From Gemmatimonadota bacterium (lineage in GTDB: Bacteria; Gemmatimonadota; Gemmatimonadetes; Palauibacterales; Palauibacteraceae): a DNA stretch of 64,000 bases. How positions within the stretch are numbered: the stretch's first letter is position 1; each line of letters opens with the position of its first letter. The translations under genes were made by a program, and so were the position numbers. Under the pieces are notes generated by a model, which was not told the DNA's origin, ran no database searches, and was given only the letters and a program-made list of their open reading frames with translations. The stretch is from NCBI GenBank assembly GCA_958295535.1, contig OY282356.1:5976-69975 (forward strand), read 5' to 3'. Positions 7,501 through 59,048 of this stretch are shown here, one piece after another.

Positions 7501-7893
7501 GGTCACTCGCTCTACAACGCCACGGCGCAGTGGTCGCTACGCGAGCTGCGCGGGGCGGCCGTGGACCAGACCGGAAAGCCCATGGAGCTCAACAAGCCGG
7601 TCGGATACGCCTCGGCTGTCTACTCGGTCAACGCCGACAACAATTGGTTCCGCGAGGATGGCGACTGGGTCAAGATCCGCGAGATGTCTTTGGGCTACAC
7701 GTTGCCGCAGTCGGCCACGGACGGTTTGTTCGGCGGCGTGTTCGACCGCGTCACGTTCAATGTGATCGGGCGCAATCTGCTTACGATCACTGGCTTCACC
7801 GGATATGATCCCGAGGTTCCGCGGTCGGGCGTAGACGGCTACAATTATCCGAACTTCCGGACGTTCACATTCGCTACCGAGCTGGTGTTCTGA
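4549..7893 (+). CDS. SusC/RagA-type TonB-dependent outer membrane receptor (carboxypeptidase-regulatory-like N-domain + plug + barrel)
   Basis: Signal peptide. 'ITGTVTD...QPVAGAQVFVQGT' CarbopepD_reg-like domain, TonB plug, terminal '...ATELVF'. AGGGGG RBS 6 nt upstream of ATG 4549 (the track start 4543 is GTG). Confidence 0.82.
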   Translation: MLVHLSARWKRGSTLAAVAIGGWLFIGAAPLAAQGAITGTVTDAESLQPVAGAQVFVQGTVIGGLTGLRGAYRLEGVPAGEQTVLVRLIGYREVSQTVTVTSGQVVTADFSVEQTALRLQELVVTGVVGETPQVKLPFTVDRLNVADLPNPSSDVSSLLAARSAGVSVISGSGQPGASSSIQLRGPTSFNRGSSPLIVIDGVISGGSLSDIATHDVDHIEMVKGAAAASLYGSRAQNGVIQITTKRGSTLQTNSVNVTARGEFGMSQLVGNIGLVRSHPFTMNEARTKFVDNEGNEVDFGDLNRPGFGSAVLYNQIKPGTPATPTTAFANQAFPNELFDHMDTFFDPGQTLDIYGSVTGRFGESSYRVSANQYQEAGVIKCSVCISNLATLNADRVSNDLRPFNVTLPQDDGYNRQNVRLNVDTRFGDIDVAASGFYSRNRQDDKAVSTGAFSRLTFMSPALDLTKIDPTDGYPEINADPQSIEPNPLYLLAVNTSYDKRTRTMGAADLNFQPAGIDWLTLEANASFDRTDFWDTSLRPKNEKAVGGGGSANFTGGSLREFNSAREAINASATAGVSKVFMDGAVTFRAKARYLIESQDYESNGVFGSEFSVQDVPNFAAISGDQVGNNSVSQVKAEGLFGIVSADYKGRYIVDGLVRRDGSSLFGADERWQTYYRGSVAWRVSQEDFWNIDAIDEMKFRFSLGTAGGRPGFSYQYETFGVSTGSIFPINLGNRNLKPEFTTEREAGLNFVFLDNIGLELTYAWQDTEGQLLQAPQPAYVGFSRQWQNAGKIKASTYEASLRYAAIDNRDVGLQFRLNWDRTQSEVERLDIPPFQSGNFYYASGRVFGEMWGEVWASSCSDLTNELTQMSQADCAANFQVNDDGLLVYTGSGNAYTEGFSKALWGTEGTVVAGGDSTTYAWGLPIKVSDYSPVCKAQYPTDYMDKCTASQYLPFGNNTPDFQASFFTTFRYKGFNFNGLLETRVGHSLYNATAQWSLRELRGAAVDQTGKPMELNKPVGYASAVYSVNADNNWFREDGDWVKIREMSLGYTLPQSATDGLFGGVFDRVTFNVIGRNLLTITGFTGYDPEVPRSGVDGYNYPNFRTFTFATELVF

Positions 7894-12161: not shown

Positions 12162-12325
12162 GCGCCGACACGGCGCGAATGAACCGGCACGGCGCCACGA
12201 AAGCAAGTCGGCGTGGCCGCGGAAGCAGGCCGACGCGCCCGCGCCGAACGACGCGAATGAGTCGACGCGGCGGTGCCGATACTCCTCGCCGGGGAGTAGC
12301 GTAGTTGCGAAGTAGTTGCGAAATG

Positions 12326-12390
12326 TCGCAAGAGCTGCGATGATTCGTCGCAAGAGCTGCGACGATCGTCGGAAGAGTTGCTGGCATTCG
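12326..12390. repeat. 3x ~21-nt imperfect tandem repeat (TCGCAAGAGCTGCGAYGATCG), preceded by 2x GTAGTTGCGAA, in the aroB-NYN intergenic region
   Basis: Seen directly in the sequence. Confidence 0.6.
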
Positions 12391-12643: not shown

Positions 12644-15217
12644 ATGAACGATAGTTATGCGCGGGCGCCGCACAGCCGCCCGGCCACCCAAGCGGAGCGG
12701 GTCTCCGCCGCGCTCCTCATCGACTTCGACAATGTGACGATGGGAGTGCGATCCAATCTGGGCCAGGAACTCCGCAACTTCCTGGATTCGGACATCGTCA
12801 GGGGCAAAGTCGCGGTGCAGCGGGCCTATGCGGACTGGCGAAGGTATCCGCAGTACATCGAGCCTCTATCCGAATCGTCGATCGACCTGATCTTCGCCCC
12901 CGCCTACGGGTCGTCCAAGAAGAACGCGACCGATATAAGGCTCGCCATCGACGCGCTGGAGCTCGTCTTCATTCGGCCCGAGATCGGCACCTTCATTCTC
13001 CTCTCGGGAGACTCCGATTTCTCGAGCTTGGTGCTCAAGCTGAAGGAGTATGGGAAGTATGTGATCGGAGTGGGGCTTCGCGAGTCCACTTCGGACATCC
13101 TCGTGCAGAACTGTGACGAGTACTACAGCTACAACCGGCTCTCGGGACTGACCTCCGTAGATGAAGCCCAGACCGCGGAACACGACCCGTGGGAGCTGAC
13201 GAGTAGTGCGGTGGCGCGCATGGTCGAGCGCGGGGACGTGATGCGGTCCGACCGGCTCAAGCAGGTGATGCTGGAAATTGATCCGAAGTTCGACGAGAAG
13301 TCGGCCGGCTTCTCCAAGTTCAACCGGTTCTTGGGCGAGGCGGCGCAGCGCGAACTGATCGTGCTGCGCAAGGCGGAAAATGGCCAGTACGATATCGCGC
13401 CATTGCCCGGGAACGGGAAGACAGGGAGCGCGAAGAGTAGCGGCGACGTCCCCTCCTCGGAGAACGGAGAGGTCTCGCCGCGGCCCCGGAGCCGCCGGAC
13501 ACGCAGGGGCGGGCGCGGCGGGCGTTCCGCCGCGACCAAGCCGGAGACGAAGAAGGCGGATGCCGACGGAGCGCCCGCCGCCCTCGCGGCGGTCTTCGAC
13601 GAGCTGTCCAAGGTGGTCGCCAGCGTGTCTCGAGGAAGCGCGTCATCCGTCAGAGATTCCGTCGCTAAGCGGAAGCTGAGCGAGCTCAACCCGAGCTTTG
13701 ACGAGCGGGCTTTTGGCTTCAGCAAGTTCAGCCACTTCTTGCAGGCCGCACATGACGCAAAAGTGGTACGGATGACGCGCGACGAGCACTCTAACGTTTA
13801 CTTGGCGCCCGGAGACGACGGTGGCGCCGGTGCCGGCGAGCAGCGGGGCAGCGGCGCAGAAACGGTCCCAGCGAGGTCGGCGAAACGAGGCGGCTCGCGG
13901 GCCGCTGGTCGCCCTCGAGCGCCAAGTGGCGCAGAAACGGCCTCTGCTAGGTCGGCCAAGGGGACTGCCGACGAGCCCGCTGTCGAAGGCCGCTCCGCTT
14001 TTTCGGCCGCGGCCGAAGCTGCTCGCAAGACGTTGTTCGGGAGATTCCGTCGCGGACGGCGCGAGCAGGTGCCCGCCTCTCCGCCGTCTGCCGCGAAGAA
14101 GCCCTCTCCGCCCGAAGCTGCGAAGAAGCCACGAACCGACGCGACACCGGCGGCCTCTGGCACCGAGCAGCGCAAGGCGGCGGCCCGCCCGGCCAAGCGT
14201 CAGGCGGCGGCCCGGCAGGAGAGCGCTCCCGCTCCCAAGGCTGTCGGCCAGGGCGGACGGGAGCGGGCCGCACGGGCCGCCTCCGCGGGGGACCGGGGTC
14301 GCCCGGCCAAGCAGCAGGTGGCGGCGCAGCAGAAAGAGGACGCTCCCGCTCCCAAGGCAGTCGGCCGGGGCGGACAGGAGCAGGCCGCACGGACGGGGGT
14401 CCGGGGTCGACCGGCCAAGCGGCAGGCAGCGGCGCAGCAGAAAGAGGACGCTCCCGATCCCAAGGCAGTCGGCCAGGGCGGACAGGAGCGGGCCGCACGG
14501 ACGGCCGCCTCTGCGGGGGACCGACGCCGCCCGGCCAAGCGTCAGGCGGCGGCGCAGCAGAAGAACGCGCCCGCGCCCGGGACTAGCGCGCCCGCGCCCA
14601 GGGCTGAGGGTCGAAGTGAGCAAGAGAGTGCCCCCGCGCCCGGGGCTGCCGGCCGCCGCCGGAGTGCCCGGCAACGAGACCAGGCTCCCGCGGCTCCCGC
14701 TGCCGATCGGCAGGAGGTTGCCAAGGAGCCGAGCCGCCGGGCGCCGTCCGCGCCGGGACAGCCCGAAGTCGCGCCCCGGCCACGCGGTCCGGCCACGCTC
14801 GGGCGCTTTCGCTCGGGGTCGCGCGGTCGCAAGCCCGCGCCGCAGGACGCCGCCCGCGCCGCCGCGCCTACCAGGAGCAGCGAGCCGGACCCTGCCGCCA
14901 AGACGACTTCGGAGAAGACGCGGGCATCCGGTGGCCAAAGCGCAGCGAAACGATCGGCCCCGGCGCGGGCGGCGGCGCCAGCGACAGGTGGCGAGCGGGC
15001 CGCCCGGCGGGACGGGAAAGCCGCCGCGGGACCGGTCACGCACATGGTCCGCAACTATCCGGGCGTCGGGAAGCGCACTGCGGAGCGACTCTACGAGCAC
15101 TTTGGCGAAGATGTCTTCCAAGTCATCGACTCTGCCCCGGAACGACTTGTCCAGGTCCTCTCCGCGGGACGGGCCAAGATAGTCGTGCAGGCTCGGGAGG
15201 CCGAGCGCGAGAGCTGA
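12644..15217 (+). CDS. NYN-domain (PIN-like RNase) + 2x OST-HTH/LOTUS + low-complexity ~40-aa tandem-repeat linker + C-terminal helix-hairpin-helix protein
   Basis: N-terminus 'LIDFDNV...IFAPAYGSSKKNATDIRLAIDALEL...ILLSGDSDFSSLVLKLKEYGKYVIGVG' is the NYN/LabA signature. Two 'D/EPKFDEKSAGFSKFNRFL'-type OST-HTH units. ~3.5 copies of PAKRQAAAQQKEDAPAPKAVGQGGQERAAR. C-terminus 'NYPGVGKRTAERLYEHFGEDVF' is HhH-like. Confidence 0.72.
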   Translation: MNDSYARAPHSRPATQAERVSAALLIDFDNVTMGVRSNLGQELRNFLDSDIVRGKVAVQRAYADWRRYPQYIEPLSESSIDLIFAPAYGSSKKNATDIRLAIDALELVFIRPEIGTFILLSGDSDFSSLVLKLKEYGKYVIGVGLRESTSDILVQNCDEYYSYNRLSGLTSVDEAQTAEHDPWELTSSAVARMVERGDVMRSDRLKQVMLEIDPKFDEKSAGFSKFNRFLGEAAQRELIVLRKAENGQYDIAPLPGNGKTGSAKSSGDVPSSENGEVSPRPRSRRTRRGGRGGRSAATKPETKKADADGAPAALAAVFDELSKVVASVSRGSASSVRDSVAKRKLSELNPSFDERAFGFSKFSHFLQAAHDAKVVRMTRDEHSNVYLAPGDDGGAGAGEQRGSGAETVPARSAKRGGSRAAGRPRAPSGAETASARSAKGTADEPAVEGRSAFSAAAEAARKTLFGRFRRGRREQVPASPPSAAKKPSPPEAAKKPRTDATPAASGTEQRKAAARPAKRQAAARQESAPAPKAVGQGGRERAARAASAGDRGRPAKQQVAAQQKEDAPAPKAVGRGGQEQAARTGVRGRPAKRQAAAQQKEDAPDPKAVGQGGQERAARTAASAGDRRRPAKRQAAAQQKNAPAPGTSAPAPRAEGRSEQESAPAPGAAGRRRSARQRDQAPAAPAADRQEVAKEPSRRAPSAPGQPEVAPRPRGPATLGRFRSGSRGRKPAPQDAARAAAPTRSSEPDPAAKTTSEKTRASGGQSAAKRSAPARAAAPATGGERAARRDGKAAAGPVTHMVRNYPGVGKRTAERLYEHFGEDVFQVIDSAPERLVQVLSAGRAKIVVQAREAERES
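14185..14580 (+). repeat. In-frame ~120-nt tandem repeats (about 3.5 copies) inside the NYN/OST-HTH gene
   Basis: Repeating cggccaagcgtcaggcggcggc...gctcccgctcccaaggc...ggccgcacgg units. Confidence 0.7.
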
Positions 15218-19262: not shown

Positions 19263-19302
19263 GAATCATCCTACTGTTGCCCCCGGAGCGGCCGCTACGC
19301 AT

Positions 19303-19332
19303 GTGACTGACGAGCAACCTCCAGGCGCGTGA
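19303..19332 (+). other. 9-codon uORF (MTDEQPPGA) created by duplication of the helicase start region; its stop overlaps the helicase GTG start (GTGA)
   Basis: Direct repeat gtgactgacgagc at 19303-19315 and 19329-19341. Confidence 0.4.
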
Positions 19333-20531
19333 CTGACGAGCGCCGCTCCTTCGCCCAACTTGGTCTCGTTCCCGCCCTCGTCGAGGTCGTCGAGCGGGCC
19401 GGGTACCGATGGCCCACGGAAATACAGTGCCAAGCCATCCCGGTTATCCTCTCGGGGCGCGACGTTCTCGGGATGGCGCCGACCGGAACCGGCAAGACGG
19501 CGGCCTTCGCCCTGCCGATCGTGCAGCGTCTCTCCATGTCGGAATCGTTGTCCGCCCCCCGGGCGCTCGTGATCACGCCGACGCGCGAACTCGCTCAGCA
19601 GATCGCGGCGGCCACTACATCCTACGGCTCGACCTCCTCGATCGAGTGCGTCCTTGTACACGGCGGAACCCCGCTCGGTCCGGAAAGGGAAGAGCTGGAG
19701 TTCGGTTGCGATGTGCTGGTCGCCACGCCGGGACGTCTTCTCGACCATCTGGGCAGGGGGAACGCCGACCTTTCGCGTATCGAATCGCTTGTTCTGGATG
19801 AAGCCGACAGAATGCTGGACATGGGGTTCATCGACGACGTGAAGGAAATCGTCGCGCGCACGTCTTCGAGCAGGCAGACCTTGCTCTTCTCGGCGACCAT
19901 GCCCGACGGCGTCCGGTATCTCGCCAGCGAGCTGATGACCGATGCCGAAGAGGTGCGGATCGGATACGAGAGGGCGGCGGAGGGGATCCGGCACGTGCTG
20001 CATCCGGTCGACTGGTGGAGGAAGCACTCTCTCTTGCGCCACCTGCTTGGGGAGTGGGCGGATGGGCAGGTGCTCGTGTTCACCCGGACGCGAGACACTA
20101 CGACCTACCTGGCCGGCTACCTGCGCGACCGGGAAGTCTCGGTCGGGTCGCTGCACGGGGGCAAGCGGCAGGAGGAGCGCGACCGGGCGTTGCGCCGCTT
20201 CCGAGAAGGAGCGTCTCGCGTGCTGGTCGCGACGAATGTGGCGGCGAGAGGTCTCGACATTCGCGGCATTCGTCATGTCGTGAACTTCGATGTGCCGGAG
20301 GACCCGAGGGACTATGTGCACCGCGTGGGCCGAACCGCTCGCGGCGACATGGACGGCGATGCGGTGACGCTGATGTCGCCGAGCGACTGGGTCGAAATCA
20401 GGGGTATCGAAGGGCTCTTGGGAGAGAGCATCGAGCGCCGGGTGGTGCCGGGGTTCGAATCCGAAGCTGCAGAACCGGAGCCTGCGCGGAAGTCCCGGCA
20501 GGGGCAGGGGAGCGTTCGGGGGCGGAGGTAA
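19329..20531 (+). CDS. DEAD-box ATP-dependent RNA helicase
   Basis: Q motif, AxTGTGKT (motif I), DEAD (VLDEADRMLDMGF), SAT, HRVGRTAR. Confidence 0.9.
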   Translation: MTDERRSFAQLGLVPALVEVVERAGYRWPTEIQCQAIPVILSGRDVLGMAPTGTGKTAAFALPIVQRLSMSESLSAPRALVITPTRELAQQIAAATTSYGSTSSIECVLVHGGTPLGPEREELEFGCDVLVATPGRLLDHLGRGNADLSRIESLVLDEADRMLDMGFIDDVKEIVARTSSSRQTLLFSATMPDGVRYLASELMTDAEEVRIGYERAAEGIRHVLHPVDWWRKHSLLRHLLGEWADGQVLVFTRTRDTTTYLAGYLRDREVSVGSLHGGKRQEERDRALRRFREGASRVLVATNVAARGLDIRGIRHVVNFDVPEDPRDYVHRVGRTARGDMDGDAVTLMSPSDWVEIRGIEGLLGESIERRVVPGFESEAAEPEPARKSRQGQGSVRGRR

Positions 20532-20551: not shown

Positions 20552-20657
20552 CGGCCATGCCGGGTAGGAGCCGCGCCGACCAAAGCCGTGGCCGGCGGCG
20601 AGTGACGGGACCGGCCATGCCGGGTAGGAGCCACGCCGACCAAAGCCGTGGCCGGCG
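20552..20657 (+). repeat. Two 46-bp direct repeats (1 mismatch), each able to form an 8-bp stem (cggccatg/cgtggccg) hairpin, in the helicase-ggt intergenic region
   Basis: cggccatgccgggtaggagcc[g/a]cgccgaccaaagccgtggccggcg occurs twice, 14 nt apart. Confidence 0.7.
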
Positions 20658-22667: not shown

Positions 22668-24479
22668 CTACTCTCCTAGCTCTTCGACATCCTGTAGATC
22701 GTAGCGGCGGCGGACCCCGTCGCGCCGGTCCCCTCCGTCGACGCGCTGCAGCGAGCCGGGATCCGCGGGACGGCGGCGGTGCCACTCCGTCGCTTGCTGG
22801 TACGCTGCGACAGCGGCCAGCAGATGGTGCTCGGCATACGGCTCTCCCCCCAGCAAGGCGCCGATCGGCCGCGGATAGCCGGTCGAGTCCGTCTCGAACC
22901 CGATCGGAAAGGCGATGAGCGGCAGGCCGACGATGTCGAAGGGGAAGGGTTGCGTCTGAGTCACGAGGTCGCACTGGCTGAAGATTCCGTCGAGAATCTC
23001 TTTCAGTAGAATCAGCCGGGCGCGCGAACCGCGAACGTACTCGGCGCCCGGCAGCAGCAGCCCGTTGATCCACGGCGACAGCGCCACGCCGAACTTTCGG
23101 ACATCGCCGCGCAGCTCTTCAAGGAAGATTTCGGAACGTTCCGGGAGCCGGGTATTGTTGAATTCCCGACTCGTCAACGTCTCCCACTCTCGAGGGAAGT
23201 CCACTTCGATCACCTCGGCGCCCAACTCCGCCAGCGTCCCGAGCATCCGCCGCCGCGCATTCATGGTCATGACGGATCGCGACTCGCCGGATGCGCCCTG
23301 GGCGGGGTCGGGCCGACCGGACGCGCCCGCCGCGAGCCTGTCCCGGAGGGGAAGAGGCTCGTCTCGGCTGTCGCCGGACTCCGCTTCTCCGAGGTAGCCG
23401 GGGAGCACTCCGATCCGCACCGGCCGACGGCGGTCCGGGTGTTCGAGCGGGCCGTGGACGCTGCGGTTCCGAGTGCGGCGAACCGCTTCGCCGACCGCCC
23501 CCACATAGTCGGGGACGGGCGGCAAGCCGAGCGATCTGGGGTCCGCTGGATCGGGCCCTGCCATCGCCTGCAGCATGATCGCGGCGTCCACGGCGTCTCG
23601 CGCCAGCGGCCCGGCATGGTCGCGGGTATAGGTGAGCGGAACGATGCCGTGCAGGGAAACGCGGCCCATCGTCGGCTTGATGCCGGTCAGCCCCTGCGCG
23701 TTGGACGGAGCGGTGATCGATCCGCCTGTCTGGGTTCCGGTGCCGCACGGCGCGAGGCGCGCCGCCACCGCCGTGGCGGAGCCGCTCGATGATCCGCCCG
23801 GGCTTACGCTCTCGTGGTACGGCGCCCAGGCGTTCACGGTTGTGCGCTCGCCTTCGGGCGTAGTCGCGGCGGTGGTAGCCAGGGGGCCCATCTGCGTCTT
23901 GCCGAGCAGAATCGCGCCGGCCTCGCGGAGACGGGCCCAGGCGGTCGCGTCGAAGTCGGGGACGAAGTCCTCGAAGATGTACGAGTTGACGGTCGTCCGG
24001 ACGCCCGCCGTGCAGAAGTTGTCCTTGATGGCGAGCGGTATGCCCGCCAGCGGGCGGCGGCGGCTCGGGGCGGTGGAGTCGGCGGATCGTGCCGCCTCCA
24101 ATGCTCCTTCGGAGAGCACGGTGTTGAAGGCCTCGTACACCGGTTCCCACCGTGCAATACGGGCGAGATACGCCTTGACGATCTCTTCGGCGCTTGCCGA
24201 GCCGTCGCGGATGAGCTGCGCCGCTTCCGCGATCGTGCAGTCGGCGAGGTCGGCGGGCGGCGTCCGGCGCGCGAACTCCAGGTCGATGCGCGGCGCGGCA
24301 GGGCGCTGTGCGGCAGGCGCCGCCGCCCCTACGCTGGCGGCCGGACGCTGCCCCGGCCACGCCGCATCGCGTCGGCCGGCCCCCGCGATCGATCCGCCCA
24401 AAACACCGGGCACGCCGGCGCCGCCGACCATGGCCGCCATGCGCTCCAGGAAGCGGCGCCGGTTGACCTCGCCAATCAC
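22668..24479 (-). CDS. Amidase-signature family amidase with twin-arginine (Tat) signal
   Basis: RRRFLERMAAMVGGAG Tat motif. Amidase signature GGSSSGSATAVAARLAPCGTGTQTGGSITAPS. Confidence 0.85.
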   Translation of the reverse strand: MIGEVNRRRFLERMAAMVGGAGVPGVLGGSIAGAGRRDAAWPGQRPAASVGAAAPAAQRPAAPRIDLEFARRTPPADLADCTIAEAAQLIRDGSASAEEIVKAYLARIARWEPVYEAFNTVLSEGALEAARSADSTAPSRRRPLAGIPLAIKDNFCTAGVRTTVNSYIFEDFVPDFDATAWARLREAGAILLGKTQMGPLATTAATTPEGERTTVNAWAPYHESVSPGGSSSGSATAVAARLAPCGTGTQTGGSITAPSNAQGLTGIKPTMGRVSLHGIVPLTYTRDHAGPLARDAVDAAIMLQAMAGPDPADPRSLGLPPVPDYVGAVGEAVRRTRNRSVHGPLEHPDRRRPVRIGVLPGYLGEAESGDSRDEPLPLRDRLAAGASGRPDPAQGASGESRSVMTMNARRRMLGTLAELGAEVIEVDFPREWETLTSREFNNTRLPERSEIFLEELRGDVRKFGVALSPWINGLLLPGAEYVRGSRARLILLKEILDGIFSQCDLVTQTQPFPFDIVGLPLIAFPIGFETDSTGYPRPIGALLGGEPYAEHHLLAAVAAYQQATEWHRRRPADPGSLQRVDGGDRRDGVRRRYDLQDVEELGE

Positions 24480-24823
24480 GGGTCGGTTCGTCCGTTACCG
24501 GTCCACGCGCTCAGTTCAGCCGGATAGATCGCGGGGGCGGGCCCGAGAGCGTCGAGTGGAAAGGCGGCGATCGCCCCCGGAGTCGTCCTCAAGAAGCGGC
24601 GGGCGGAAGCCATGATCCGGGCTTGGTCGGCCGGGGCGCCATCATCCTGCTCCGGCAACACCGAGAGATCGACCCCCAGCAGGACCAGGCGCGCGCGGAT
24701 GTAGGCATCCAGCTCTTCGTCTGTCACTTCATGGGCGGCCGGCGTCGCTGCCTGAGCGCTTGGCGTCATTGCCTGAGCGGCTGGCGTTGCCAAATGCCGG
24801 CGACCCTGTCTGTCCTCGATCAC
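24476..24823 (-). CDS. Hypothetical small protein, 4-nt overlap (ATGA) with the downstream amidase
   Basis: ORF only. Ala/Pro-rich, no recognisable motif. Coding status uncertain in high-GC DNA. Confidence 0.3.
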   Translation of the reverse strand: MIEDRQGRRHLATPAAQAMTPSAQAATPAAHEVTDEELDAYIRARLVLLGVDLSVLPEQDDGAPADQARIMASARRFLRTTPGAIAAFPLDALGPAPAIYPAELSAWTGNGRTDP

Positions 24824-24870
24824 GACTTCCTGTCCTCCTTGGGGCGTTGGCGCAACCCGGTCCTACCGTC

Positions 24871-24920
24871 GGGCAGAATACTACCGGGCAGAATACTACT
24901 CCGTCGGGCAGATACTGTAG
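24871..24920. promoter_or_regulatory. Tandem direct repeats GGGCAGAATACTAC x2 plus degenerate GGGCAGATACTGTAG, in an AT-richer stretch upstream of the His-rich TonB receptor
   Basis: Seen directly. Located in the divergent intergenic region 24824-25056. Confidence 0.5.
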
Positions 24921-25056
24921 CGATACCCGCGATGGCTACGTGTCGCTTGTCCGGATAGCCTGCCGGAATACGTTCTCTTGCACCAGGGGGGTAATATGAC
25001 GAATATCAATGCAGCCGCTATGATGGTTAGCCCCTTCAGATAAAAGGCCGCATACG

Positions 25057-27339
25057 ATGCTCCGAGCAACCTGCGTTCTCCCCAGTATCGCAAGGCTACT
25101 GCCCTCATGTGGCGTAGCGCTGGCGCTGCTCGCGACACCGTCCGCGGCGCTAGCGCAGCAAGGGGGCGAAATCCGAATCCGCGTGGTCGATGCGCAAGGG
25201 CAGGCCGTTACCCAGGCCCAGGTGCGGATCCGAGGCACTGACTTCGCATCTCGGCTCGAGGACAACGGGGAAGCGCGGTTCCGCGATGTTCCGGCAGGCG
25301 ATTATGTAATAGAAGTCACAACCGAGACCGGAGGCCGCGGCATCGAAGCTGTGAGCGTCGGTGTGGGAGAAGCCGTCGAAGTCACCATCACCGTGTCCGC
25401 GGCGATCGGAGTAGCGGATATCGTCGTCTCCTTGGCAGCTGAGCTGTACACTCCTCGCGATGTGCTGCGCGGCGCCGATCTGACTGCACGTACCGAGGCG
25501 AGCCTCGGCGAAACGTTGGCGGGTCGGCCCGGCGTGAGCTCGTCCTACCACGGTGCCGGGGCCTCGCGGCCAATCATTCGCGGGCTTGGCGGGTCGCGCA
25601 TCCGCGTGCTTGAATCCGGCGTGGGCTCGGGGGATGCCTCCACTACAAGCCCGGATCATGCGCCGGGCGTAGAGGCCGCGACGGCCGATCGGATCGAGGT
25701 GATCCGCGGCCCGGCGACGCTGCTCTACGGCGGCGCGATCGGCGGCGTCGTCAACATTGAAGATGGGCGAGTGCCGCAGCGGCTCCCGGGATCTTCGGCC
25801 ACCGGTTCGGTAACGCTGCGCGGTGGAACGGTAGGCCGCGAGCGAAACGTCGGCGGACGGTTCGACGGCGCGGTCGGGAATGTCGCCTATCATATGAGCG
25901 GCCTGTACCGCAACACCGGCGATTTCCGCGTACCGCACGACGGAATCCTTCCGAACACCTCGATAACTAGCTCCAGGGTCGCTGTCGGACTGTCGCATAT
26001 CGGAAGTCGCGGCTTCGTCGGCGTGTCTTTCTCGGGGTTGGGCAACGACTATGGCGTGCCGGGAGAGCATCACCACCACGGGGAAGGTGATGACCACGAG
26101 GAGGAGGAAGACGACCACGGGGAAGAAGATGACCACGAGGAGGAGGACGGCAACATTCGCATAGATCTTCGCCAGCGGCGGGCCGATCTCATGGCGGGGC
26201 GCGATCTGGGCGACGGCTTCTTCAACAGCGTCAATCTGCGCTTCGGCCTCGCCGACTACCAGCACTCGGAACTGCTCCTTCACGATGATGGGGACCAGGA
26301 CGTCGAGGCGCGGTTCTTCAACAACGAATGGGAAGGACGCCTCGAGGTACGACACCAATTTGCCCGCCCGGGAAGCGGCGCGTTCGGGATTCAGGCGCGG
26401 CACCGGAACTTCCAGGCCCTTGGCGAAGGGCAAGAAGTGTTGATTGCGCCAGCGACCACCACCACGTTTGCCGCCTTCGTTTTCGAAGAGATGCGCTTCG
26501 GCAGAGCCGGACTGCAGGCCGGTGCCCGGATAGAGTCTCAGAGGACGAGCGCGGAAGGATTCCCTGCGCGTCGGAGTTTCCTGAATATGTCGGGTTCGGT
26601 CGGAGCCGAGTTCAATGTCGCCGGCGACATGTCGTTGTTCCTGTCGGGCGCCCGTGCCGAGAGGGCGCCAACGTCCGACGAACTCTTCACGAGCGGACAA
26701 CATCTGGCGTTGCTGGCCAACGAGTTCGGGAACCCGAATCTCTCGAGCGAAGTCGCCTACACCGTCGACGCGGGGGTTCGCCTCGAGGGGCCCATCCGCG
26801 GCGAGCTCAGCTTCTTCGTGAACTCCTTCGATTCCTTCATATACCGGGCGATCTCGGATGCGCCGGACGGCGGCCTGCGCGAGCTCCGGTGGCGGCAGGC
26901 GCCGGCCGTCTTCAGGGGGTTCGAGGTGCAGGCGAGCACCGAGATCTTTCACATCGGGGACGGTCACTTGGTGCTGGATGCATGGGGCGACTATGTGCGA
27001 GCCGAACTGTCCGACGATAACGAGCCCCTTCCGCAGATTCCCCCGCTCAGCCTCGGAACAGGACTGGGATGGAGCTCCCCCACATGGCGTGGCCGCGCCA
27101 GCGTCAGGCGAATAGGAGCGCAGAACCGGATCGCTCCCCTGGAAACGGCCACCGACAGCTACACGATGCTCGATGCGAATGTCGGATACCGTTTGGTACA
27201 AGGCGCCGTACTGCACGACATCACGCTTTACGGCAAGAATCTGACAGACCAGGAAGCGCGGAACCACACGTCGCTGATCAAGGAATTCGTTCCGCTTCCG
27301 GGCCGCGAGATCCGTTTGATTTACCAGCTCACCTTCTAG
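25057..27339 (+). CDS. TonB-dependent outer membrane receptor with His/Asp/Glu-rich loop (ZnuD-like putative zinc/metal transporter)
   Basis: Signal peptide, plug, barrel ending in 'YQLTF'. Internal 'GEHHHHGEGDDHEEEEDDHGEEDDHEEED' (26065-26152). Confidence 0.82.
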   Translation: MLRATCVLPSIARLLPSCGVALALLATPSAALAQQGGEIRIRVVDAQGQAVTQAQVRIRGTDFASRLEDNGEARFRDVPAGDYVIEVTTETGGRGIEAVSVGVGEAVEVTITVSAAIGVADIVVSLAAELYTPRDVLRGADLTARTEASLGETLAGRPGVSSSYHGAGASRPIIRGLGGSRIRVLESGVGSGDASTTSPDHAPGVEAATADRIEVIRGPATLLYGGAIGGVVNIEDGRVPQRLPGSSATGSVTLRGGTVGRERNVGGRFDGAVGNVAYHMSGLYRNTGDFRVPHDGILPNTSITSSRVAVGLSHIGSRGFVGVSFSGLGNDYGVPGEHHHHGEGDDHEEEEDDHGEEDDHEEEDGNIRIDLRQRRADLMAGRDLGDGFFNSVNLRFGLADYQHSELLLHDDGDQDVEARFFNNEWEGRLEVRHQFARPGSGAFGIQARHRNFQALGEGQEVLIAPATTTTFAAFVFEEMRFGRAGLQAGARIESQRTSAEGFPARRSFLNMSGSVGAEFNVAGDMSLFLSGARAERAPTSDELFTSGQHLALLANEFGNPNLSSEVAYTVDAGVRLEGPIRGELSFFVNSFDSFIYRAISDAPDGGLRELRWRQAPAVFRGFEVQASTEIFHIGDGHLVLDAWGDYVRAELSDDNEPLPQIPPLSLGTGLGWSSPTWRGRASVRRIGAQNRIAPLETATDSYTMLDANVGYRLVQGAVLHDITLYGKNLTDQEARNHTSLIKEFVPLPGREIRLIYQLTF

Positions 27340-27354
27340 CGCCAAGGGTTCGGC

Positions 27355-27678
27355 GTGAGCAACGTAGAAGTCGGGATTAGACCGCTTGTAGAACTTACAG
27401 GCAAGGACCGCGAGTGGGTGGTCCAGCGGCTAGCGGAGTTGGAACAGAAGAGAAAGCGGCTGGGATGCCAGATGGACCGGCCATGCGTGATACCCGATAA
27501 CGCCTGGGTTGTGTACGATACCTTTCGTCTGGTCATCCAAGAGGCTGGACCAAATGGGGAGCCCACTGACCACTTCCAGTTCATCTGGATGGATGACATG
27601 AGTCCCGATTTCAAGAAGTACTTGGACAAGGTGCTGCGTGATGACCTCGCACGGCAGGCGGTGGCGAACCGCGGGTAG
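27355..27678 (+). CDS. Hypothetical 107-aa protein in a lower-GC (~55%) islet
   Basis: ORF with codon usage and GC clearly different from flanking genes. No known motif. Confidence 0.4.
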   Translation: MSNVEVGIRPLVELTGKDREWVVQRLAELEQKRKRLGCQMDRPCVIPDNAWVVYDTFRLVIQEAGPNGEPTDHFQFIWMDDMSPDFKKYLDKVLRDDLARQAVANRG

Positions 27679-28315
27679 ATGCGGTCGGGAAGCGCGGCGC
27701 GGCGCCACAAGTAGCGTCGTGTGGCGCCATAAGGGTGCTTGAAGAGGAGTTTGCCGGCCGGAAGCGCAGTCGCTACGTTTCGGCATAGTGGCCTCGGGCG
27801 TTAGCAGGCTGCGGTTGCACTTTCCGGGGTTGCAGCCTGGGCCACGGACAGATGCGTGACCGGAGAAACGGGTGCAAGGTTGTGTTTCTTGAGCCAACAC
27901 TAGGCCCAGTTGGCTCCCATCCTCAGGCGGACGTCATGCCCCTGGCGGGGACGGCGAAAGCATGCAGGTAGGAGTCGTAAAGTTTCGATAAAGGGCTTCA
28001 AGAAATCACCTTGCATCTGTTTCTATCCGGAAGCGGGGGCGGCGTCCTTGCCGCCTGCGCGGCTTCTCCCACCCGATATTCGGCATGATCTCTGAAGAAG
28101 CGTCCGTGACGCCTGGGTCAGATTCGGCTTCGGCGCTGTCCGGATGCGCTGCCGGCGACCCCTCGAACTCTCGCGCCGTTCCCGACGCTTCGGACCGGCC
28201 GCCTCCCGCCTCCGCCGGTACGCGGACAGAAGAAGACCCGAACTCTCGCGTCGCTTCTCGCGCTTCGGACCATGCAGGGTCTCCGTTGCCGTCTGGCCAC
28301 ACCGGTGACGACCCG

Positions 28316-29850: not shown

Positions 29851-29930
29851 TCGCGCCGCGCGGGACTGCGAGACGCCAGCGCGGGGCTGCGAGGCGAACG
29901 AAAGGCGCCGGCGACAACGATCTGATCGCG
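29815..29930. repeat. ~40-bp direct repeat gcgaacgaaaggcgccg.cg.caacgatctgatcgcg x2 (76 bp apart); first copy overlaps the stop of the upstream gene
   Basis: Seen directly. Confidence 0.6.
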
Positions 29931-32755: not shown

Positions 32756-32803
32756 AGGAGGCCGGAGGAGCGCCTTAGCGCAAGAAGAGGCGCAAGAAAT
32801 CTC

Positions 32804-34360: not shown

Positions 34361-35316
34361 TACGGAAAAGGCAGGTTGACGGTGACGCCCGAGTAGCGGA
34401 ACCCTTGGCCGTCGCCGGCGAGGAGCGCTTCGAGCCTGACAGCCCTCGGCCAGTCGGCACCACTTCTTCCATCCGAAACGGCGCCGGTCGGCGACTCCCC
34501 GGTTGCGGGCCGGAAGCTGCCCGTCAGCCCGGCCTCCGGTATCTCGAAGCGCCACCCTGGGCCGGCCGCTCCTCCTTCGCCGGTGGCCGCTTCTCCTTCG
34601 ACCGGTGCCAGCGTCACCCTGCCCCAGCTACCCTCCGCGCCGTTTATCCAGGTGTGGGCCGCGGCGGGATTGCCCGGCGTTCCTTCGTGAACCAGGAATG
34701 CGTTCCCAAGCGAATCGGCGCAGAGAAAGGTTCGTCCACCGGCGGCCGATGCTGGAGCGTCAAGAGCTCGCGCGGCCCGCCGGAAGAACAGGATGCCGGA
34801 GATCGCCTCCTCTCCAGTATCCAGATGGGCCAGCGCAAGCGACTCCCGCTGTCCGGTCGGACCCGTCCAGTCGGAGACGTTCTGGCCGATGCTCAGCTGC
34901 CAAGGCGCTTCCTCGCCCTCGCCAGAGAAACGAAGTCTCGCGATCTGGCCCTGGTCTCCGATCAGCACGGACATCCCGGCGGCAGGGAGAACTCGCCACG
35001 CCGCCCGGGGAGCGGGCAGCGTGTCCTGTACGCGAAGCAGCGTCGTCCAGTCGGCGGCTCTGCCCGCCACTCCCACATCATACGTCCGCATCAGCCGGCG
35101 CCCGCGAGCCGCCTGGTCGAAAGAGCCGTATAGCGTCGTCCCATCCGCGGCCACGAAGAGCACGTGCGTGAGGTAGCGGGCGTCGACCGTGGCAGGCGGG
35201 ATGTCGCGCCCCGCCGCGCTGCCCGCGTCCGCCTCGCCCTCCGAGGATGTCCCGCCGCATGCGCACAGTAGCGGAACGAGAGCGGCCCGGAGGCAGCCTC
35301 CGGCGCGCGCGGCCAA
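34360..35316 (-). CDS. Hypothetical lipoprotein
   Basis: Lipobox ...LVPLLCACGG. TTG 35316 gives an 18-aa signal peptide and avoids overlap with the upstream gene (the track start 35412 overlaps it). Confidence 0.4.
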   Translation of the reverse strand: MAARAGGCLRAALVPLLCACGGTSSEGEADAGSAAGRDIPPATVDARYLTHVLFVAADGTTLYGSFDQAARGRRLMRTYDVGVAGRAADWTTLLRVQDTLPAPRAAWRVLPAAGMSVLIGDQGQIARLRFSGEGEEAPWQLSIGQNVSDWTGPTGQRESLALAHLDTGEEAISGILFFRRAARALDAPASAAGGRTFLCADSLGNAFLVHEGTPGNPAAAHTWINGAEGSWGRVTLAPVEGEAATGEGGAAGPGWRFEIPEAGLTGSFRPATGESPTGAVSDGRSGADWPRAVRLEALLAGDGQGFRYSGVTVNLPFP

Positions 35317-35815: not shown

Positions 35816-35825
35816 AGTGTTGCCA

Positions 35826-36033
35826 TCCCCTCATCCGCATGTTGCCGCAAAATAGTATCTCGTTCCGGTTGCCGAGGACCGCCGCCGGGTCGCCGTCCCC
35901 TCATCCCAATGTTGCCGTCCCGTCGTCTCTCGTTCCGGTTGCCGAGGACCGCCGCCGGGTCGCCGTCCCCTCATCCCAATGTTGCCGTCCCATCGTCTCT
36001 CGTTCCGGTTGCCGAGGACCGCCGCCGCCGGAT
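35826..36033. repeat. ~3.5 copies of a 70-bp tandem repeat (tcgttccggttgccgaggaccgccgccgggtcgccgtcccctcatcccaatgttgccgtcccgtcgtctc) upstream of the nucleotidyltransferase gene
   Basis: Seen directly. Copies at ~35860-35929 and 35930-35999, with partial copies at both ends. Not CRISPR-like (no unique spacers). Confidence 0.8.
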
Positions 36034-38847: not shown

Positions 38848-39236
38848 AGGGTAGTCCGGAAGCTGGGGCCGCCCGCCGCGCGGTCGGCGGCATGGCTGCT
38901 CTGTCGGGACTCCCGCTGGCGGCGCTCGCAGTCATGCTTGGCGTGGTGCTCATGGTGAACGTACGGCACTACGGCTGGCTCGCCGCATCCGGCGGCTTCG
39001 TTCTCTGCGCCGTTGGCTTGGCCCTCGCCGTTCGCTGCTTCCGGTCCGCCCGTCCCGCTAGCGGCCCTGCCGACCCTGTCGGCCCTGCCCGCACTGCTCG
39101 CACTGCCGGTCCTGTGGGCCCTGCCCGCCCTGCCGACCCTGCCGGCCCTGTCATCGCAGGTCGATCCGCTCCCCGCCGCAGCCGGGGAGGGCGGGAATTG
39201 TCCGAACCTGTCAAATCGGGGGATGTCTCCAAATGA
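38826..39236 (+). CDS. Small membrane protein with Pro/Ala/Gly-rich repeat tail (PADPVGPAR...)
   Basis: Two hydrophobic helices, then 9-nt-periodic repeats. Overlaps the upstream ORF by 22 nt. Confidence 0.3.
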   Translation: MAAFQKLEGSPEAGAARRAVGGMAALSGLPLAALAVMLGVVLMVNVRHYGWLAASGGFVLCAVGLALAVRCFRSARPASGPADPVGPARTARTAGPVGPARPADPAGPVIAGRSAPRRSRGGRELSEPVKSGDVSK

Positions 39237-43109: not shown

Positions 43110-43183
43110 TGCGCCCGGGAGGACTCGAACCCCCAGCCTTCTGATCCGAAGTCAGATGCTCTGTCCAATTGAGCTACGGGCGC
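43110..43183 (-). tRNA. tRNA-Arg (anticodon UCG)
   Basis: Hand-folded cloverleaf: acceptor GCGCCCG/CGGGCGC, D-stem GCUC/GAGC, anticodon stem UCUGA/UCAGA with loop CUUCGGA, T-stem GGGGG/CCUCC with UUCGAGU loop. 74 nt, no encoded CCA. Confidence 0.88.
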
Positions 43184-43276
43184 TTGTGCGCGGCACTACC
43201 GGCGCTGGATTGCCATGAGCGGCTTGTCCCGCGCGGCCCCACTGGATAACGCGGAATCGATCGCCGCGCCAGCACG

Positions 43277-43640
43277 ACCGCCCCACACCGGCGCGACCGC
43301 TCGACACCAGCTCAACAGCTCCACCGGCGCGACCGCGCCACCAGCGCGACAGCTCCACACCAGCTCAACCGCTACACCGGCGCGACCACTCGACGCCGAC
43401 ACGGTGGTGGCTAAGAAGAGAGAGTAGACGCAGCAAGTCGGAGCGCGCAACCTAGTTGAAGTCGAATAAGTTCTCCTCGTGGCGGGAAGAGAAGTGCAGC
43501 CTCGCGCGGCGGAAAGGCAACTTCGGGGAGGGAAATCCGCCCCGCAGCGGGCAGGCAAGTGCAGTCCGCCCGGCGGATAGACAACTTCGGGAATGGGAAT
43601 TTCGCCCCGCATTGGATAGGCAACTTCGGGAAGGACTAGG
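43277..43640. repeat. Two intergenic repeat families: ~36-nt imperfect tandem repeats (caccggcgcgaccgctcgacaccagctcaac...) x3, and ~32-nt repeats (RRCAACTTCGGGRAKGGRAATYYCGCCCCGCA) x2.5 that form short GC hairpins
   Basis: Seen directly, between the tRNA-Arg and the FG-GAP/ASPIC gene. Confidence 0.6.
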
Positions 43641-51530: not shown

Positions 51531-51913
51531 CGGCGGCGGAGGAAGAAGAGGTCGCGGACGAGCGCCAGTCGCATCGTTCGAGGAAAGTCCGGGCTCCGCA
51601 GGGCACGGTGCCGGGTAACGCCCGGGCGTCGCGAGGCGACGGAAAGCGCCGCAGAGAGCAGACCGCCGATGGCGGCTCAGGCCGCACAGGCAAGGGTGAA
51701 AGGGTGGGGTAAGAGCCCACCGCGCCTACTGGTAACAGAGGTGGCACGGCAAGCCCCGCCGGGAGCAAGGCCAAGCAGGAGCGAGCGGTTGCCCGCCGCG
51801 TTCGAGCTCCGGGTAGGCCGCATGAGGTCCCGGGAGACCGCGGGCCCAAGATAGATGACCTCGGCCTCGGGCGCGTCCCGCAGGTTGACAGAACCCGGCT
51901 TATCTTCCTCCGC
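51531..51913 (+). ncRNA. rnpB: RNase P RNA (bacterial type A)
   Basis: P4 'GAGGAAAGUCCGGGCUCC', 'GGUAACGCCCGGG', 'GGGUGAAAGGGUG', 'ACAGAACCCGGCUUA'. P1 pairing ggcggaggaagaag / cttatcttcctccgcc. Followed by a T-run. Spurious ORFs overlap it. Confidence 0.9.
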
Positions 51914-52108
51914 CCTTTTTTCTTGTTCAAAAGAGAACCGTTCAATCGACTTGATCGACGAGGATTGTTTGTTGACGCCAGCTTCACTCCTTTGGGCGAT
52001 AAGCTGCCAACCAGATCGAGACGAGACTGTCTCGTTGTGTTCGTGGCCGTGGTGGCGGCCGTGCTGGTCGGGATGTGCGCCACGGGCGCGGCTTCATGAC
52101 GGCGGCTG

Positions 52109-56019: not shown

Positions 56020-56676
56020 ATGAAGACGAATCGGAAGCTCGGTCTAGCCGTGCAAGATAACGCTGCCGCCTTGCTGGAACCCGTCGGGTACAGCCAGCTG
56101 CGGCATCTCGAAGATGCCGAGCTCGTCAAGCGCTACCTCGCGGGCCAGCGCTACGCGTTCACCGAGTTGGCCAACCGGTACCAGGACCGCCTGCTGAACT
56201 TCATCTACCGGATGATCGGCGACCGGGACCGAGCGGAAGATTTGGCGCAGGAGACCTTCGTGCGCGTGTACCGGCACCTGCACCGCTACGATTCGGGCCG
56301 CAAGTTTTCAACCTGGATACTGACGATCGCCAGCAACCTGTCGAAGAACGAACTGCGAAACCGCGCCCGGAATCCGCTGGTGCTCTTCCAGGCGATGAGG
56401 GCCAGCTGGCAAGCCGATAACCGTCCTATCGAGTTCGAAGACAAGCGCAACCTGCCTGACGATCTCTTCCGGAAGCGGCGCCTCCAGGAACAGGTCGAGA
56501 TCGCCGTCACGAAGCTGCCGGAACACCACAGAGTCGTTTTCGTTCTTCGTGAAATGGAAGGGAAGACTTACGACGAGATATCGCAGATCACGGGCGTCAC
56601 TCTCGGCACGGTCAAGTCTCGTCTCAATCGAGCGCGCAACCGCTTCGCCCAGATCATCCTTCCGATGCTGGACTAG
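56020..56676 (+). CDS. ECF-family RNA polymerase sigma factor (sigma-70 regions 2 and 4)
   Basis: 'DLAQETFVRVYRHL..Y', 'FSTWILTIASN', region 4 'YDEISQITGVTLGTVKSRLNRAR'. Confidence 0.9.
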   Translation: MKTNRKLGLAVQDNAAALLEPVGYSQLRHLEDAELVKRYLAGQRYAFTELANRYQDRLLNFIYRMIGDRDRAEDLAQETFVRVYRHLHRYDSGRKFSTWILTIASNLSKNELRNRARNPLVLFQAMRASWQADNRPIEFEDKRNLPDDLFRKRRLQEQVEIAVTKLPEHHRVVFVLREMEGKTYDEISQITGVTLGTVKSRLNRARNRFAQIILPMLD

Positions 56677-58463: not shown

Positions 58464-59048
58464 ATGGTTTGCACCGACTTCCTGAAGCGATACACGGAGT
58501 ATCAAGACGGGCTTCTGGCTCCAGAAGAGCGCGTACGGTTCGACGAGCATCTCGCTAGCTGCGAGGGTTGCAAGCGGTACCATACCGCGCTCGTACGCGG
58601 ACTCGCCCACTGTAGAGAATTGCCGCGCGTCGGCGCCTCGCCGGACTTCCTTCCGCGTCTTCAACACCGTCTGTACCATATCGACGAGGCTGGAAAGAGA
58701 CGCCTGCGGACGCACCTGGACAAGGTGGCCATGGCTGCCGCGGCGGCAGCTCTGGTAGCCGCGATCTGGCTTCCCCTCCGCGGACCGGATGGCAACGAGG
58801 CGATGTTGATGCCGGTTGCCGGAGATGCGCCTGCGGCGGGTACGGCGGTGCAGCCGAGTCTCTTCGACAGCGGTCCCTTCTTGCCGGGTCGGCTACTGGT
58901 GCCGTTCGCCCCGGAGATGCAAGATGAGGGCGGACTGTTTCCCTCCTCGTACGGCAAGACGATGTACGAGATGACGGCAGCGACGGCGACCGACTCCGCT
59001 CCCTCGCCAGTGGTGCGGCTTACCAGCCAGACAGACGAGGCTCGCTGA
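58464..59048 (+). CDS. Zinc-binding anti-sigma factor (ZAS, HxxxCxxC) with one TM helix
   Basis: 'CTDFLKRYTEYQDGLL..EERVRFDEHLASCEGCKRY' putative zinc-finger anti-sigma motif, then TM 'AMAAAAAALVAAIWLPL'. Confidence 0.7.
   Translation: MVCTDFLKRYTEYQDGLLAPEERVRFDEHLASCEGCKRYHTALVRGLAHCRELPRVGASPDFLPRLQHRLYHIDEAGKRRLRTHLDKVAMAAAAAALVAAIWLPLRGPDGNEAMLMPVAGDAPAAGTAVQPSLFDSGPFLPGRLLVPFAPEMQDEGGLFPSSYGKTMYEMTAATATDSAPSPVVRLTSQTDEAR

Follow-up and report, generated by a model that had tools for sequence, protein, structure and literature searches.

The window analysed here comprises 64,000 nucleotides (64 kb) of a contig from a Longimicrobiales/Palauibacter-like Gemmatimonadota bacterium. It contains a gene for a ZnuD-like TonB-dependent receptor and, in the divergent orientation, a pair formed by a small ORF and an amidase-family gene (Table 1). 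The small ORF overlaps the amidase gene, its stop codon coinciding in part with the start of the latter; its own GTG start codon, located at 24823, is preceded by a strong AAGGAGG. The intergenic region between the two units (24824–25056) harbors a tandem direct-repeat array, an AT-rich element and a single promoter-like site.

Table 1. Features of the receptor locus and the divergent operon (coordinates of the 64-kb window; aa, residues of the receptor).
Feature	Position	Strand	Basis or remarks
ZnuD-like TonB-dependent receptor gene	25057–27339	+	translation (760 aa), domain profiles, sequence and fold matches
Receptor signal peptide	to about aa 33
Receptor CarboxypepD_reg domain	aa 39–113
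Receptor TonB-box-like DIVVS	aa 121–125
Receptor plug	aa 132–231
Receptor 22-strand barrel	from about aa 248
Codons D200-H201	25654–25659	+	aligned to ZnuD Asp99-His100, plug apical loop
His/Asp/Glu-rich insert EHHHHGEGDDHEEEEDDHGEEDDHEEED(G), extracellular loop 3	26065–26151, aa 337–365	+	translation, ZnuD alignment, model
Codon E405	26269–26271	+	aligned to ZnuD Glu340
Codon H549	26701–26703	+	aligned to ZnuD His499
Tandem direct-repeat array, 2 exact 15-nt copies and a degenerate third	24863–24916	.	TRF 3.1 copies, score 62
AT-rich element AATATGACGAATATCAAT	24993–25010	+	non-palindromic, unique in window, overlaps −35 of promoter-like site
Sigma-70-like promoter match ATGACG-17-TATGAT, 9/12	24996–25024	+	the sole one in the intergenic region; consensus match only
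115-aa ORF	24476–24823	−	kept in relatives (93–94 aa there)
Amidase-family gene, twin-arginine-type N-terminus	22668–24479	−	second gene of the divergent pair

Domain profiles revealed CarboxypepD_reg, plug and TonB beta-barrel domains in the translated receptor (Pfam matches: Plug and TonB_dep_Rec_b-barrel). Among all NCBIfam families, the best match was NF038289 (ZnuD), with 316 bits and an E value of 5e-94, a score that lies below the curated cut-off of 950 bits; the next family reached 99 bits. The best match among the PDB sequences was 4rdr (E = 1.8e-58; OprC, 1.9e-11), and a Foldseek search retrieved 4rdt, 4rdr and 4rvw with E values from 5e-42 to 3e-37 (OprC, 3e-28). The original prediction of a ZnuD-like receptor is thus sustained by family, sequence and fold comparisons.

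In ZnuD, the high-affinity zinc site is formed by Asp99, His100, Glu340 and His499 (PMC4557270). Aligning the receptor with ZnuD, as the original prediction had suggested, showed that these four ligands are conserved as D200, H201, E405 and H549, and that the His/acidic stretch falls in loop 3. The four residues are invariant among 31 homologues that share 42–56% identity with the receptor. An AF2 model folds as a barrel (pTM 0.74); the plug region at residues 158–206 has pLDDT values below 50, too low to judge the geometry of the ligand quartet. Judging from these comparisons, the protein is predicted to be a conventional ZnuD-type importer of metal ions across the outer membrane, and ZnuD-type metal receptors with an intact zinc-binding quartet appear to extend to the Gemmatimonadota.

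The 29-residue His/Asp/Glu-rich loop described previously is indeed present, and its string had been given correctly except for the leading E. It is composed of 7 His, 7 Asp, 11 Glu and 4 Gly. Residues 337–365 are flanked by the segments aligned to the two loop-3 clusters of ZnuD, HSHEYDDCHAD and HDDDNAHAHTH, and in the model they connect strands 319–334 and 366–383, the fifth and sixth strands of the barrel (beta5/beta6). The alignment and the model therefore place this stretch as the predicted equivalent of the extracellular loop 3 of ZnuD and not in a periplasmic turn, so that the objection to the receptor reading based on such a turn fails. At the DNA level, the loop is encoded by an 18-nt tandem repeat (3.8 copies, 26075–26145, TRF), suggesting that the insert may have arisen through slippage of this unit. 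Loop length and His content vary among the homologues, from 0 to 7 His, and the insert is exceptionally rich for this family feature of variable length. Growth of such a His/acidic capture loop by repeat slippage and the extension of ZnuD-type receptors to the Gemmatimonadota would be of use for annotation, though unsurprising.

The intergenic region had been described as the most AT-rich stretch nearby. It does reach 55% G+C, but it is the lowest point only jointly with two other spots in about 5 kb. The tandem repeat reported upstream of the receptor, with its degenerate third copy, was confirmed: CGGGCAGAATACTAC occurs in exact tandem at 24870–24884 and 24885–24899, and the degenerate copy, CCGTCGGGCAGA-TACTGTAG, begins at 24901, giving spacings of 15 and 20 nt. 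The exact copy of 15 nt is the product of a duplication event and not a chance match. The array lies 141–194 nt from the ATG of the receptor, 40–93 nt from the divergent GTG and 80–133 nt upstream of the promoter-like −35, which corresponds to roughly −115 to −170 relative to the inferred start site. The element AATATGACGAATATCAAT is also found after the array, as had been noted.

The window abounds in arrays of this kind, 21 of which have a TRF score of at least 50. Nine are located in the approximately 7.5 kb of intergenic DNA, and the array upstream of the receptor has the lowest score of these nine; those in the other intergenic regions are similar but have unrelated units. Related loci carry 0–2 arrays per 18 kb, with the exception of L004, for which seven TRF rows were obtained, several of them overlapping and in His-rich coding repeats. 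Within the 64 kb, there are no further copies of the array beyond those expected by chance. A scan of 185,579 species genomes with CGGGCAGAATACTAC gave at least 120 matches; those listed are single-copy and from unrelated taxa, and the source genome is not among them, so these matches have no bearing on recurrence within it. The 21-mer TACCGTCGGGCAGAATACTAC had no match in a metagenome scan, and the pattern GGCAGAATAC-N4-12-GGCAGAATAC had more than 120, but all the matches listed are unrelated repeats, none with the 15-nt unit, and many are purine-rich repeats of the CAGAATA/CAGAAGG type in unrelated contigs.

The only close relative, a second assembly with 99% identity, has an identical intergenic region, which makes it uninformative about the function of the array. 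The next relatives are 53–56% identical, and their intergenic region cannot be aligned. The array has no counterpart in the syntenic relatives L001 and L002, which carry an ORF of 105–115 aa in its place, and no shared AT-rich or palindromic motif was seen upstream of the receptor in L001, L002, L004, L005 and L006. A riboswitch or a known leader RNA at this locus was ruled out, since Rfam gave no match there when the whole window and the intergenic region were searched.

Eleven related loci were retrieved, of which 10 are distinct, L127 and L128 being one locus represented in two assemblies. In 9 of the 10, the receptor is headed by an ORF of 88–128 aa with a CxxC motif followed, after 42–45 residues, by R[AG]PP. 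This arrangement resembles CruR (DUF2946), a copper-responsive arrest-peptide leader characterized by an export signal and by CxxC and RAPP motifs about 45 residues apart; in Bordetella its response is copper-specific, and it heads operons of copper-linked TonB-dependent receptors (TBDTs) (PMC9426467). The ORFs of the relatives match the Pfam profile of DUF2946 weakly (E = 0.004–0.009), and many have an additional HxH before CxxC. No CruR-like ORF was found in the window in any frame of 24600–25100, tblastn produced no match there, and no remnant of such an ORF was detected. From this comparison, the CruR-like leader ORF appears to have been lost in this genome.

We consider that these observations are best accounted for jointly, with a probability of roughly 0.6, by a ZnuD-type receptor whose likeliest substrate is zinc, a loop grown by slippage, and an array that is neutral or at most incidental, in an intergenic region remodelled at the loss of the leader. 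The flexible His/Asp/Glu-rich extracellular loop 3 would capture free divalent metal ions, as in ZnuD, and, once the plug is opened by TonB, the ion would enter the periplasm. The intergenic region that holds the array may have been remodelled when the CruR-like (DUF2946-type) leader ORF was lost in this lineage. In this context, the array would most likely be neutral, at most an incidental product of slippage, and probably has no function.

The transported metal is most likely zinc, with copper as a real alternative. Given that the relatives carry leaders resembling the copper-responsive CruR and that this leader appears to have been lost here, copper is a serious rival, although on balance we regard it as rather unlikely. 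The receptor would then take up copper, as the free ion or a small chelate, much as the OprC and CrtA systems controlled by CruR do, and would thereby supply cytochrome oxidase and other cuproenzymes. The leader that heads the orthologous receptor in most relatives and the copper specificity of CruR in Bordetella speak for this, as do the SCO1/SenC and CtaG genes that L001 and L002 carry 4–5 kb downstream. Cu(II), too, can be bound by an Asp-His-Glu-His site. However, the receptor is not of the OprC type (TIGR01778, 58.7 bits; cut-off, 472), and the invariance of the four ZnuD zinc ligands argues for zinc. It is not of the CrtA type either, since it strongly matches ZnuD, whereas CrtA is described as forming a cluster distinct from every TBDT with a solved structure (PMC12914433). 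Other relatives have zinc-linked neighbors, a ZIP gene in L251 and CDF and DUF411 genes in L004, and the extra HxH suggests that the leaders may sense a different metal. Moreover, the locus in the window lacks both the leader and the SCO1/CtaG genes. Metal-related genes in the 11 loci are limited to scattered ZIP, CDF, DUF411, SCO1 and CtaG, and no adjacency to zur or znuABC was found in them. CruR-like arrest-peptide ORFs have so far been described mainly in Proteobacteria, before copper receptors. Their presence ahead of ZnuD-like receptors in the relatives raises the questions of whether leaders of this type can also respond to a metal besides copper and of which substrate the ZnuD-like receptors truly import.

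Regarding the array, it could instead belong to the promoter or operator of the small-ORF/amidase operon and have no connection with the receptor, an explanation that we find unlikely. Its position just past the AAGGAGG ribosome-binding site is where the promoter of this operon must be, and each unit contains, on the minus strand, a TAGTAT that matches the −10 consensus in five of six positions. However, no acceptable minus-strand −35/−10 pair was found within the array, even with relaxed criteria, and the same operon is present in L001 and L002 without an array upstream.

In the original prediction, a metalloregulator encoded elsewhere, either Zur/Fur-like or a response regulator, would turn the receptor on under metal limitation, its operator being the tandem GGGCAGAATACTAC copies, the AT-rich element or both. 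Several observations agree with this view: exact direct repeats occur in a divergent promoter region, and the loss of the leader ORF in this lineage leads one to expect some other control of the receptor. The AT-rich element and the promoter-like −35 overlap, a position often occupied by Zur boxes (PMC6103462), and ZnuD-type receptors are under Zur control in Neisseria, Pseudomonas and Caulobacter. However, Zur/Fur sites are palindromes or pseudopalindromes (7-1-7, 9-1-9 or about 23 bp), and none was found in the intergenic region, where the best palindrome has 6 of 8 matching positions and was equalled in 285 of 300 shuffled sequences; a Fur-type 7-1-7 site with up to three mismatches is absent from the entire window. 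The array is too far from the inferred start site to suit a repressor. Sites of the OmpR/PhoB type are usually phased at 10–11 nt, and for a response regulator we looked for direct repeats phased at about 10–11 nt (or 21–22 nt) next to the −35 together with a cognate two-component system; neither the 15-nt nor the 20-nt spacing agrees with such phasing, and no response regulator or kinase is encoded in the 64 kb. The only regulatory proteins found there are an ECF sigma factor (56020–56676) and a zf-HC2 protein (58464–59048); beyond these, no regulator gene was detected in the 64 kb, in line with the earlier remark that none is adjacent. A second copy of the motif is also missing from the window, the relatives lack the array, and other intergenic regions are occupied by comparable arrays built from unrelated units. 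The operator claim was thus not borne out: the array is probably not a Zur/Fur operator, and we consider a metalloregulator operator at this site doubtful and improbable. The downstream GTP cyclohydrolase I gene was considered as a hint of a Zur regulon, an idea that was dropped because the enzyme is of the FolE1 type (PF01227) and its synteny is that of conserved housekeeping genes.

It is possible that a direct-repeat-binding regulator is encoded elsewhere in the 3-Mb genome. In related Gemmatimonadota and Acidobacteriota, this receptor family would be under the control of a CruR-like leader; we give very little credence to the proposal that, after the loss of the leader, the receptor gene was rewired in this lineage to a transcription factor binding the newly arisen, slippage-born direct repeats (24863–24916), which, if true, would mean that attenuation by a leader peptide was recently exchanged for control through an operator.

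Compared with the CruR operons (cruR-crtA of Bordetella and oprC of Pseudomonas), the relatives of the receptor share a first-position ORF with an export signal, CxxC and R[AG]PP, whereas the window has no leader ORF and its receptor is of neither the OprC nor the CrtA type. The ORFs of the relatives further differ from CruR in their weak similarity to DUF2946 and, in many cases, in the extra HxH. The Zur-regulated receptors ZnuK/L/M of Caulobacter and PA0781 of Pseudomonas are likewise outer-membrane proteins of environmental bacteria for which zinc scavenging has been proposed, but their genes have inverted-repeat Zur sites over the −10/−35, in contrast to the receptor gene described here, which has no inverted repeat. 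The closest parallel is ZnuD of Neisseria meningitidis (PDB 4RDR/4RDT/4RVW; NF038289), with which the receptor shares the plug and the 22-strand barrel, the Asp-His (plug) and Glu/His (barrel) zinc ligands, and the His/acidic clusters of extracellular loop 3. The resemblance is a distant one, with 25–27% identity and a score far under the curated cut-off, and the receptor has an additional N-terminal CarboxypepD_reg domain. The ZnuD loop is Asp-rich and contains a cysteine pair that draws its two clusters together (Stork 2010), whereas the loop of the receptor is Glu-rich and Cys-free; the mature receptor has no Cys at all, the only two being at positions 6 and 18 of the signal peptide. Unlike at the znuD gene, no Zur box was recognised at the receptor gene. 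Finally, ZnuD belongs to a mucosal pathogen, whereas the receptor belongs to a free-living or marine Gemmatimonadota bacterium.

The receptor is an ordinary further case of the ZnuD-like kind, the type of the zinc TonB-dependent receptor of Neisseria meningitidis, in an under-studied phylum. The ZnuD model NF038289 topped the NCBIfam matches (316 bits, E 5e-94, far under its curated cut-off of 950), ahead of haem receptors, the next family, at 99 bits; TIGR01778, the model for copper receptors, scored 59 bits. Among all PDB sequences, ZnuD (4rdr) was the best match (E 1.8e-58), with the copper-linked OprC at 1.9e-11. A Foldseek search with an AlphaFold2 model of the receptor, built from 31 homologues (mean pLDDT 68.5, pTM 0.74), retrieved ZnuD structures at E 5e-42 to 3e-37, versus 3e-28 for OprC. 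The buried high-affinity zinc site of ZnuD consists of Asp99, His100, Glu340 and His499 (PMC4557270); with the offset of the PDB chain (paper number + 14) applied, their aligned counterparts in the receptor are D200, H201, E405 and H549, which do not vary across the 31-sequence family alignment. These matches, together with the retained ligand quartet, bear out the original prediction of a ZnuD-like receptor. It differs from Neisseria ZnuD in its extra N-terminal CarboxypepD_reg domain, in a loop that is Glu-rich instead of Asp-rich, and in lacking the cysteine pair of this loop. The same protein was found in only one further assembly (DNA 97–99% identical across the compared stretches), and the next relatives show 53–56% identity; going by the named homologues, the source is a member of Gemmatimonadota of the Longimicrobiales/Candidatus Palauibacter kind.

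According to the model, the His/acidic stretch is an extracellular loop: a disordered segment (339–364) lies between strands 319–334 and 366–383, predicted as the fifth and sixth of the barrel, which would leave it on the outer side. In the alignment with ZnuD, GVPGEHHHHG, directly ahead of the stretch, pairs with GLPAHSHEYD, the start of cluster 1 (HSHEYDDCHAD), and the residues directly after it pair with DDNAHAHTHSGRPWIDLRNKRYEL, cluster 2 (HDDDNAHAHTH); both clusters are in extracellular loop 3 of ZnuD, and the receptor stretch falls between their counterparts. The side of the loop had been set beforehand as a test, and neither the alignment nor the model placed it in a periplasmic turn. 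Homologues have in common the core G-V-P-G-x-H-x-H-E ... E-E-E-x-V-x-I-D-L-x-Q-R-R, and the insert varies in length and in His content (0 to 7), the window's copy being among the richest. Its DNA (26075–26145) consists of 3.8 tandem copies of an 18-nt repeat, with units like HGEGDD/HGEEDD; thus, this metal-capture loop appears to have grown through repeat slippage.

The loop, the upstream tandem repeats and the AT-rich element were all found again as the original prediction had described them. Its further proposal, that the repeats are a metalloregulator operator (Zur/Fur-like or response-regulator), is not strictly refuted, but we obtained no positive evidence for it and several counts stand against it. 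The sites bound by Fur-family regulators are (pseudo)palindromes, as a rule overlapping the −35 or −10 (PMC6103462; PMC4176598). The 233-nt intergenic region (24824–25056) holds no meaningful palindrome (the best, 6/8, was matched by 285 of 300 shuffles), and no Fur-type 7-1-7 site with up to three mismatches was found across the whole window. The array (24863–24916), whose degenerate third copy has CCGTCGGGCAGA in common with the first, ends 80 nt upstream of the −35 of the promoter-like site, and is much nearer the divergent small-ORF/amidase pair, at 40–93 nt from its GTG. The repeat unit has no more copies in the 64 kb than chance; the matches listed from a scan of species genomes, at least 120, were chance ones in unrelated taxa and did not include the source genome, so that they carry no information on recurrence within it, and metagenome scans gave nothing relevant. 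The array is not present in the syntenic relatives L001 and L002, and the intergenic sequence is identical in a 99% identical assembly, too close to inform on conservation. As had been noted, no regulator gene is adjacent: genes for Fur-family, two-component or any other DNA-binding regulators are lacking from the window, whose sole regulatory candidates, encoded about 30 kb from the receptor, are a zf-HC2 protein and an ECF sigma factor. A mini-ORF of 15 codons (MTNINAAAMMVSPFR, 24996–25043), with a G-run before it as a possible ribosome-binding site, stops 13 nt ahead of the receptor ATG; since it overlaps the AT-rich element and the promoter-like site, at most one of these readings is correct.

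Short tandem duplication is a general habit of the source genome, and the array density is unusually high: the window has 21 arrays with a TRF score of at least 50, versus 0–2 per 18 kb in related loci, except L004 (seven TRF rows, several overlapping and within His-rich coding repeats). Nine of the 21 are intergenic, in about 7.5 kb of such DNA (1.2 per kb), each with a different unit, and among these the array upstream of the receptor scores lowest.

In the divergent pair (22668–24823, −), a conserved small ORF (about 94–115 aa) precedes an amidase that bears a twin-arginine-type signal (RRRFLERMAAMVGG). The stop of the small ORF overlaps the start of the amidase, and its N-terminus carries a 21-nt repeat of 3.1 copies (24723–24787); the pair resembles small-subunit/amidase pairs such as AtzG/AtzE. 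About 500 nt of extra DNA (region 27340–28225), of lower G+C (55–60%; window, 66%) and absent between receptor and folE in L001 and L002, contain a 107-aa ORF (27355–27678, +) that starts 16 nt past the receptor stop. This ORF had no match in Pfam or NCBIfam; in the sister assembly L003 it is among the called genes. Rfam matched nothing in the window apart from the RNase P RNA and one tRNA.

Features of the window, and leader ORFs of related receptor loci
Feature	Position	Strand	Detail
Receptor ORF	25057-27339	+	760 aa
Receptor signal peptide			terminus ALA-QQ
Receptor domains	aa 39-113; aa 132-231		CarboxypepD_reg; plug; then TonB-dependent beta-barrel
TonB-box-like motif	aa 121-125		DIVVS
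His/acidic stretch	aa 337-365, nt 26065-26151	+	EHHHHGEGDDHEEEEDDHGEEDDHEEEDG; 7 His, 7 Asp, 11 Glu, 4 Gly
Exact tandem copies (two)	24870-24899		CGGGCAGAATACTAC
AT-rich element	24993-25010		AATATGACGAATATCAAT
Sole sigma-70-like match of the intergenic region	24996-25024		ATGACG-17-TATGAT
Short tandem arrays (sample)	12325-12381, 19286-19347, 20559-20655, 29854-29893, 34564-34607, 39062-39152, 43269-43387, 43492-43623
Long tandem repeat	14186-14562		108 nt x 3.3; inside NYN/OST-HTH protein gene
Long tandem repeat	35822-36027		70 nt x 2.9; start of nucleotidyl-transferase ORF
tRNA gene	43110-43183	-	Rfam
RNase P RNA class A	51535-51918	+	Rfam, 250 bits
Leader ORFs	L001:7565-7882; L002:7540-7887; L005 about 7470-7795
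Leader ORFs	L127:6493-6879; L129:6550-6927; L130:6682-6948
Leader ORFs	L251:2510-2812; L252:2560-2937; L253:2513-2896

The gene order amidase, 93–94-aa ORF, receptor, folE, TPR and AMP-binding enzyme is kept in L001, L002 and L251, which have an additional 100–115-aa ORF, on the receptor strand, separating the receptor from the small divergent ORF. With non-syntenic loci included, an ORF of 88–128 aa lies directly 5′ of the receptor in nine of ten distinct relatives (L127 and L128 taken as one locus). Each of these nine leaders has an N-terminal hydrophobic segment (a putative export signal), a CxxC and, 42–45 residues on, R[AG]PP, 2 to 15 residues from the stop; HxH is found about 10 residues ahead of CxxC in six, or in seven with the HH run of L129, and matches to Pfam DUF2946 were weak (E 0.004–0.009). 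The upstream ORF CruR (DUF2946) of Bordetella, of the copper-responsive arrest-peptide kind, controls TonB-dependent transporter operons via Rho-dependent termination, and its family has a CXXC-to-RAPP distance of 45 residues, plus or minus one or two (PMC9426467). The leaders show the defining CruR features, CxxC followed by an R[AG]PP close to the C-terminus. In the window, no leader ORF was found in any frame, nor any tblastn trace of one; thus, the intergenic region flagged by the original prediction is a shortened remnant of the site of the family's usual control element.

Judged from sequence, zinc is the most likely substrate of the receptor, as favoured by the conserved ZnuD quartet, the ZnuD-like loop, the ZIP gene beside the L251 locus and the CDF/DUF411 cluster beside the L004 paralogue. 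Copper is a serious alternative, favoured by the CruR-like leaders of the relatives and by two genes for copper chaperones, CtaG and SCO1/SenC, which in L001 (14979–16454) and L002 (14723–16183) lie near the receptor, with CutA1 on one side and a DUF445 gene on the other. Against copper, the receptor is not OprC-type by NCBIfam, nor CrtA-type, CrtA reportedly forming a cluster separate from all TBDTs with known structure (PMC12914433). Neither chaperone gene is at the corresponding position in the window (32756–32803) or in L003; thus, one and the same lineage lost the CruR-like leader and both chaperone genes at the locus. At L004:4584–7781, the 45% identical paralogue has 5′ of it DUF411, a CDF efflux gene that includes a His-rich repeat, a 205-aa membrane protein and a His-rich 110-aa ORF containing a 159-nt repeat, and the ZIP-family gene of L251 (1–309) adjoins the amidase; these neighbours are scattered metal-related context for the receptor family.

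The most interesting by-product, which comes from the related genomes and not from the window, is the presence of CruR-like leaders before ZnuD-like receptors. CruR has been described mainly from Proteobacteria, and for copper, whereas these leaders precede receptors of the ZnuD type in Gemmatimonadota and Acidobacteriota.
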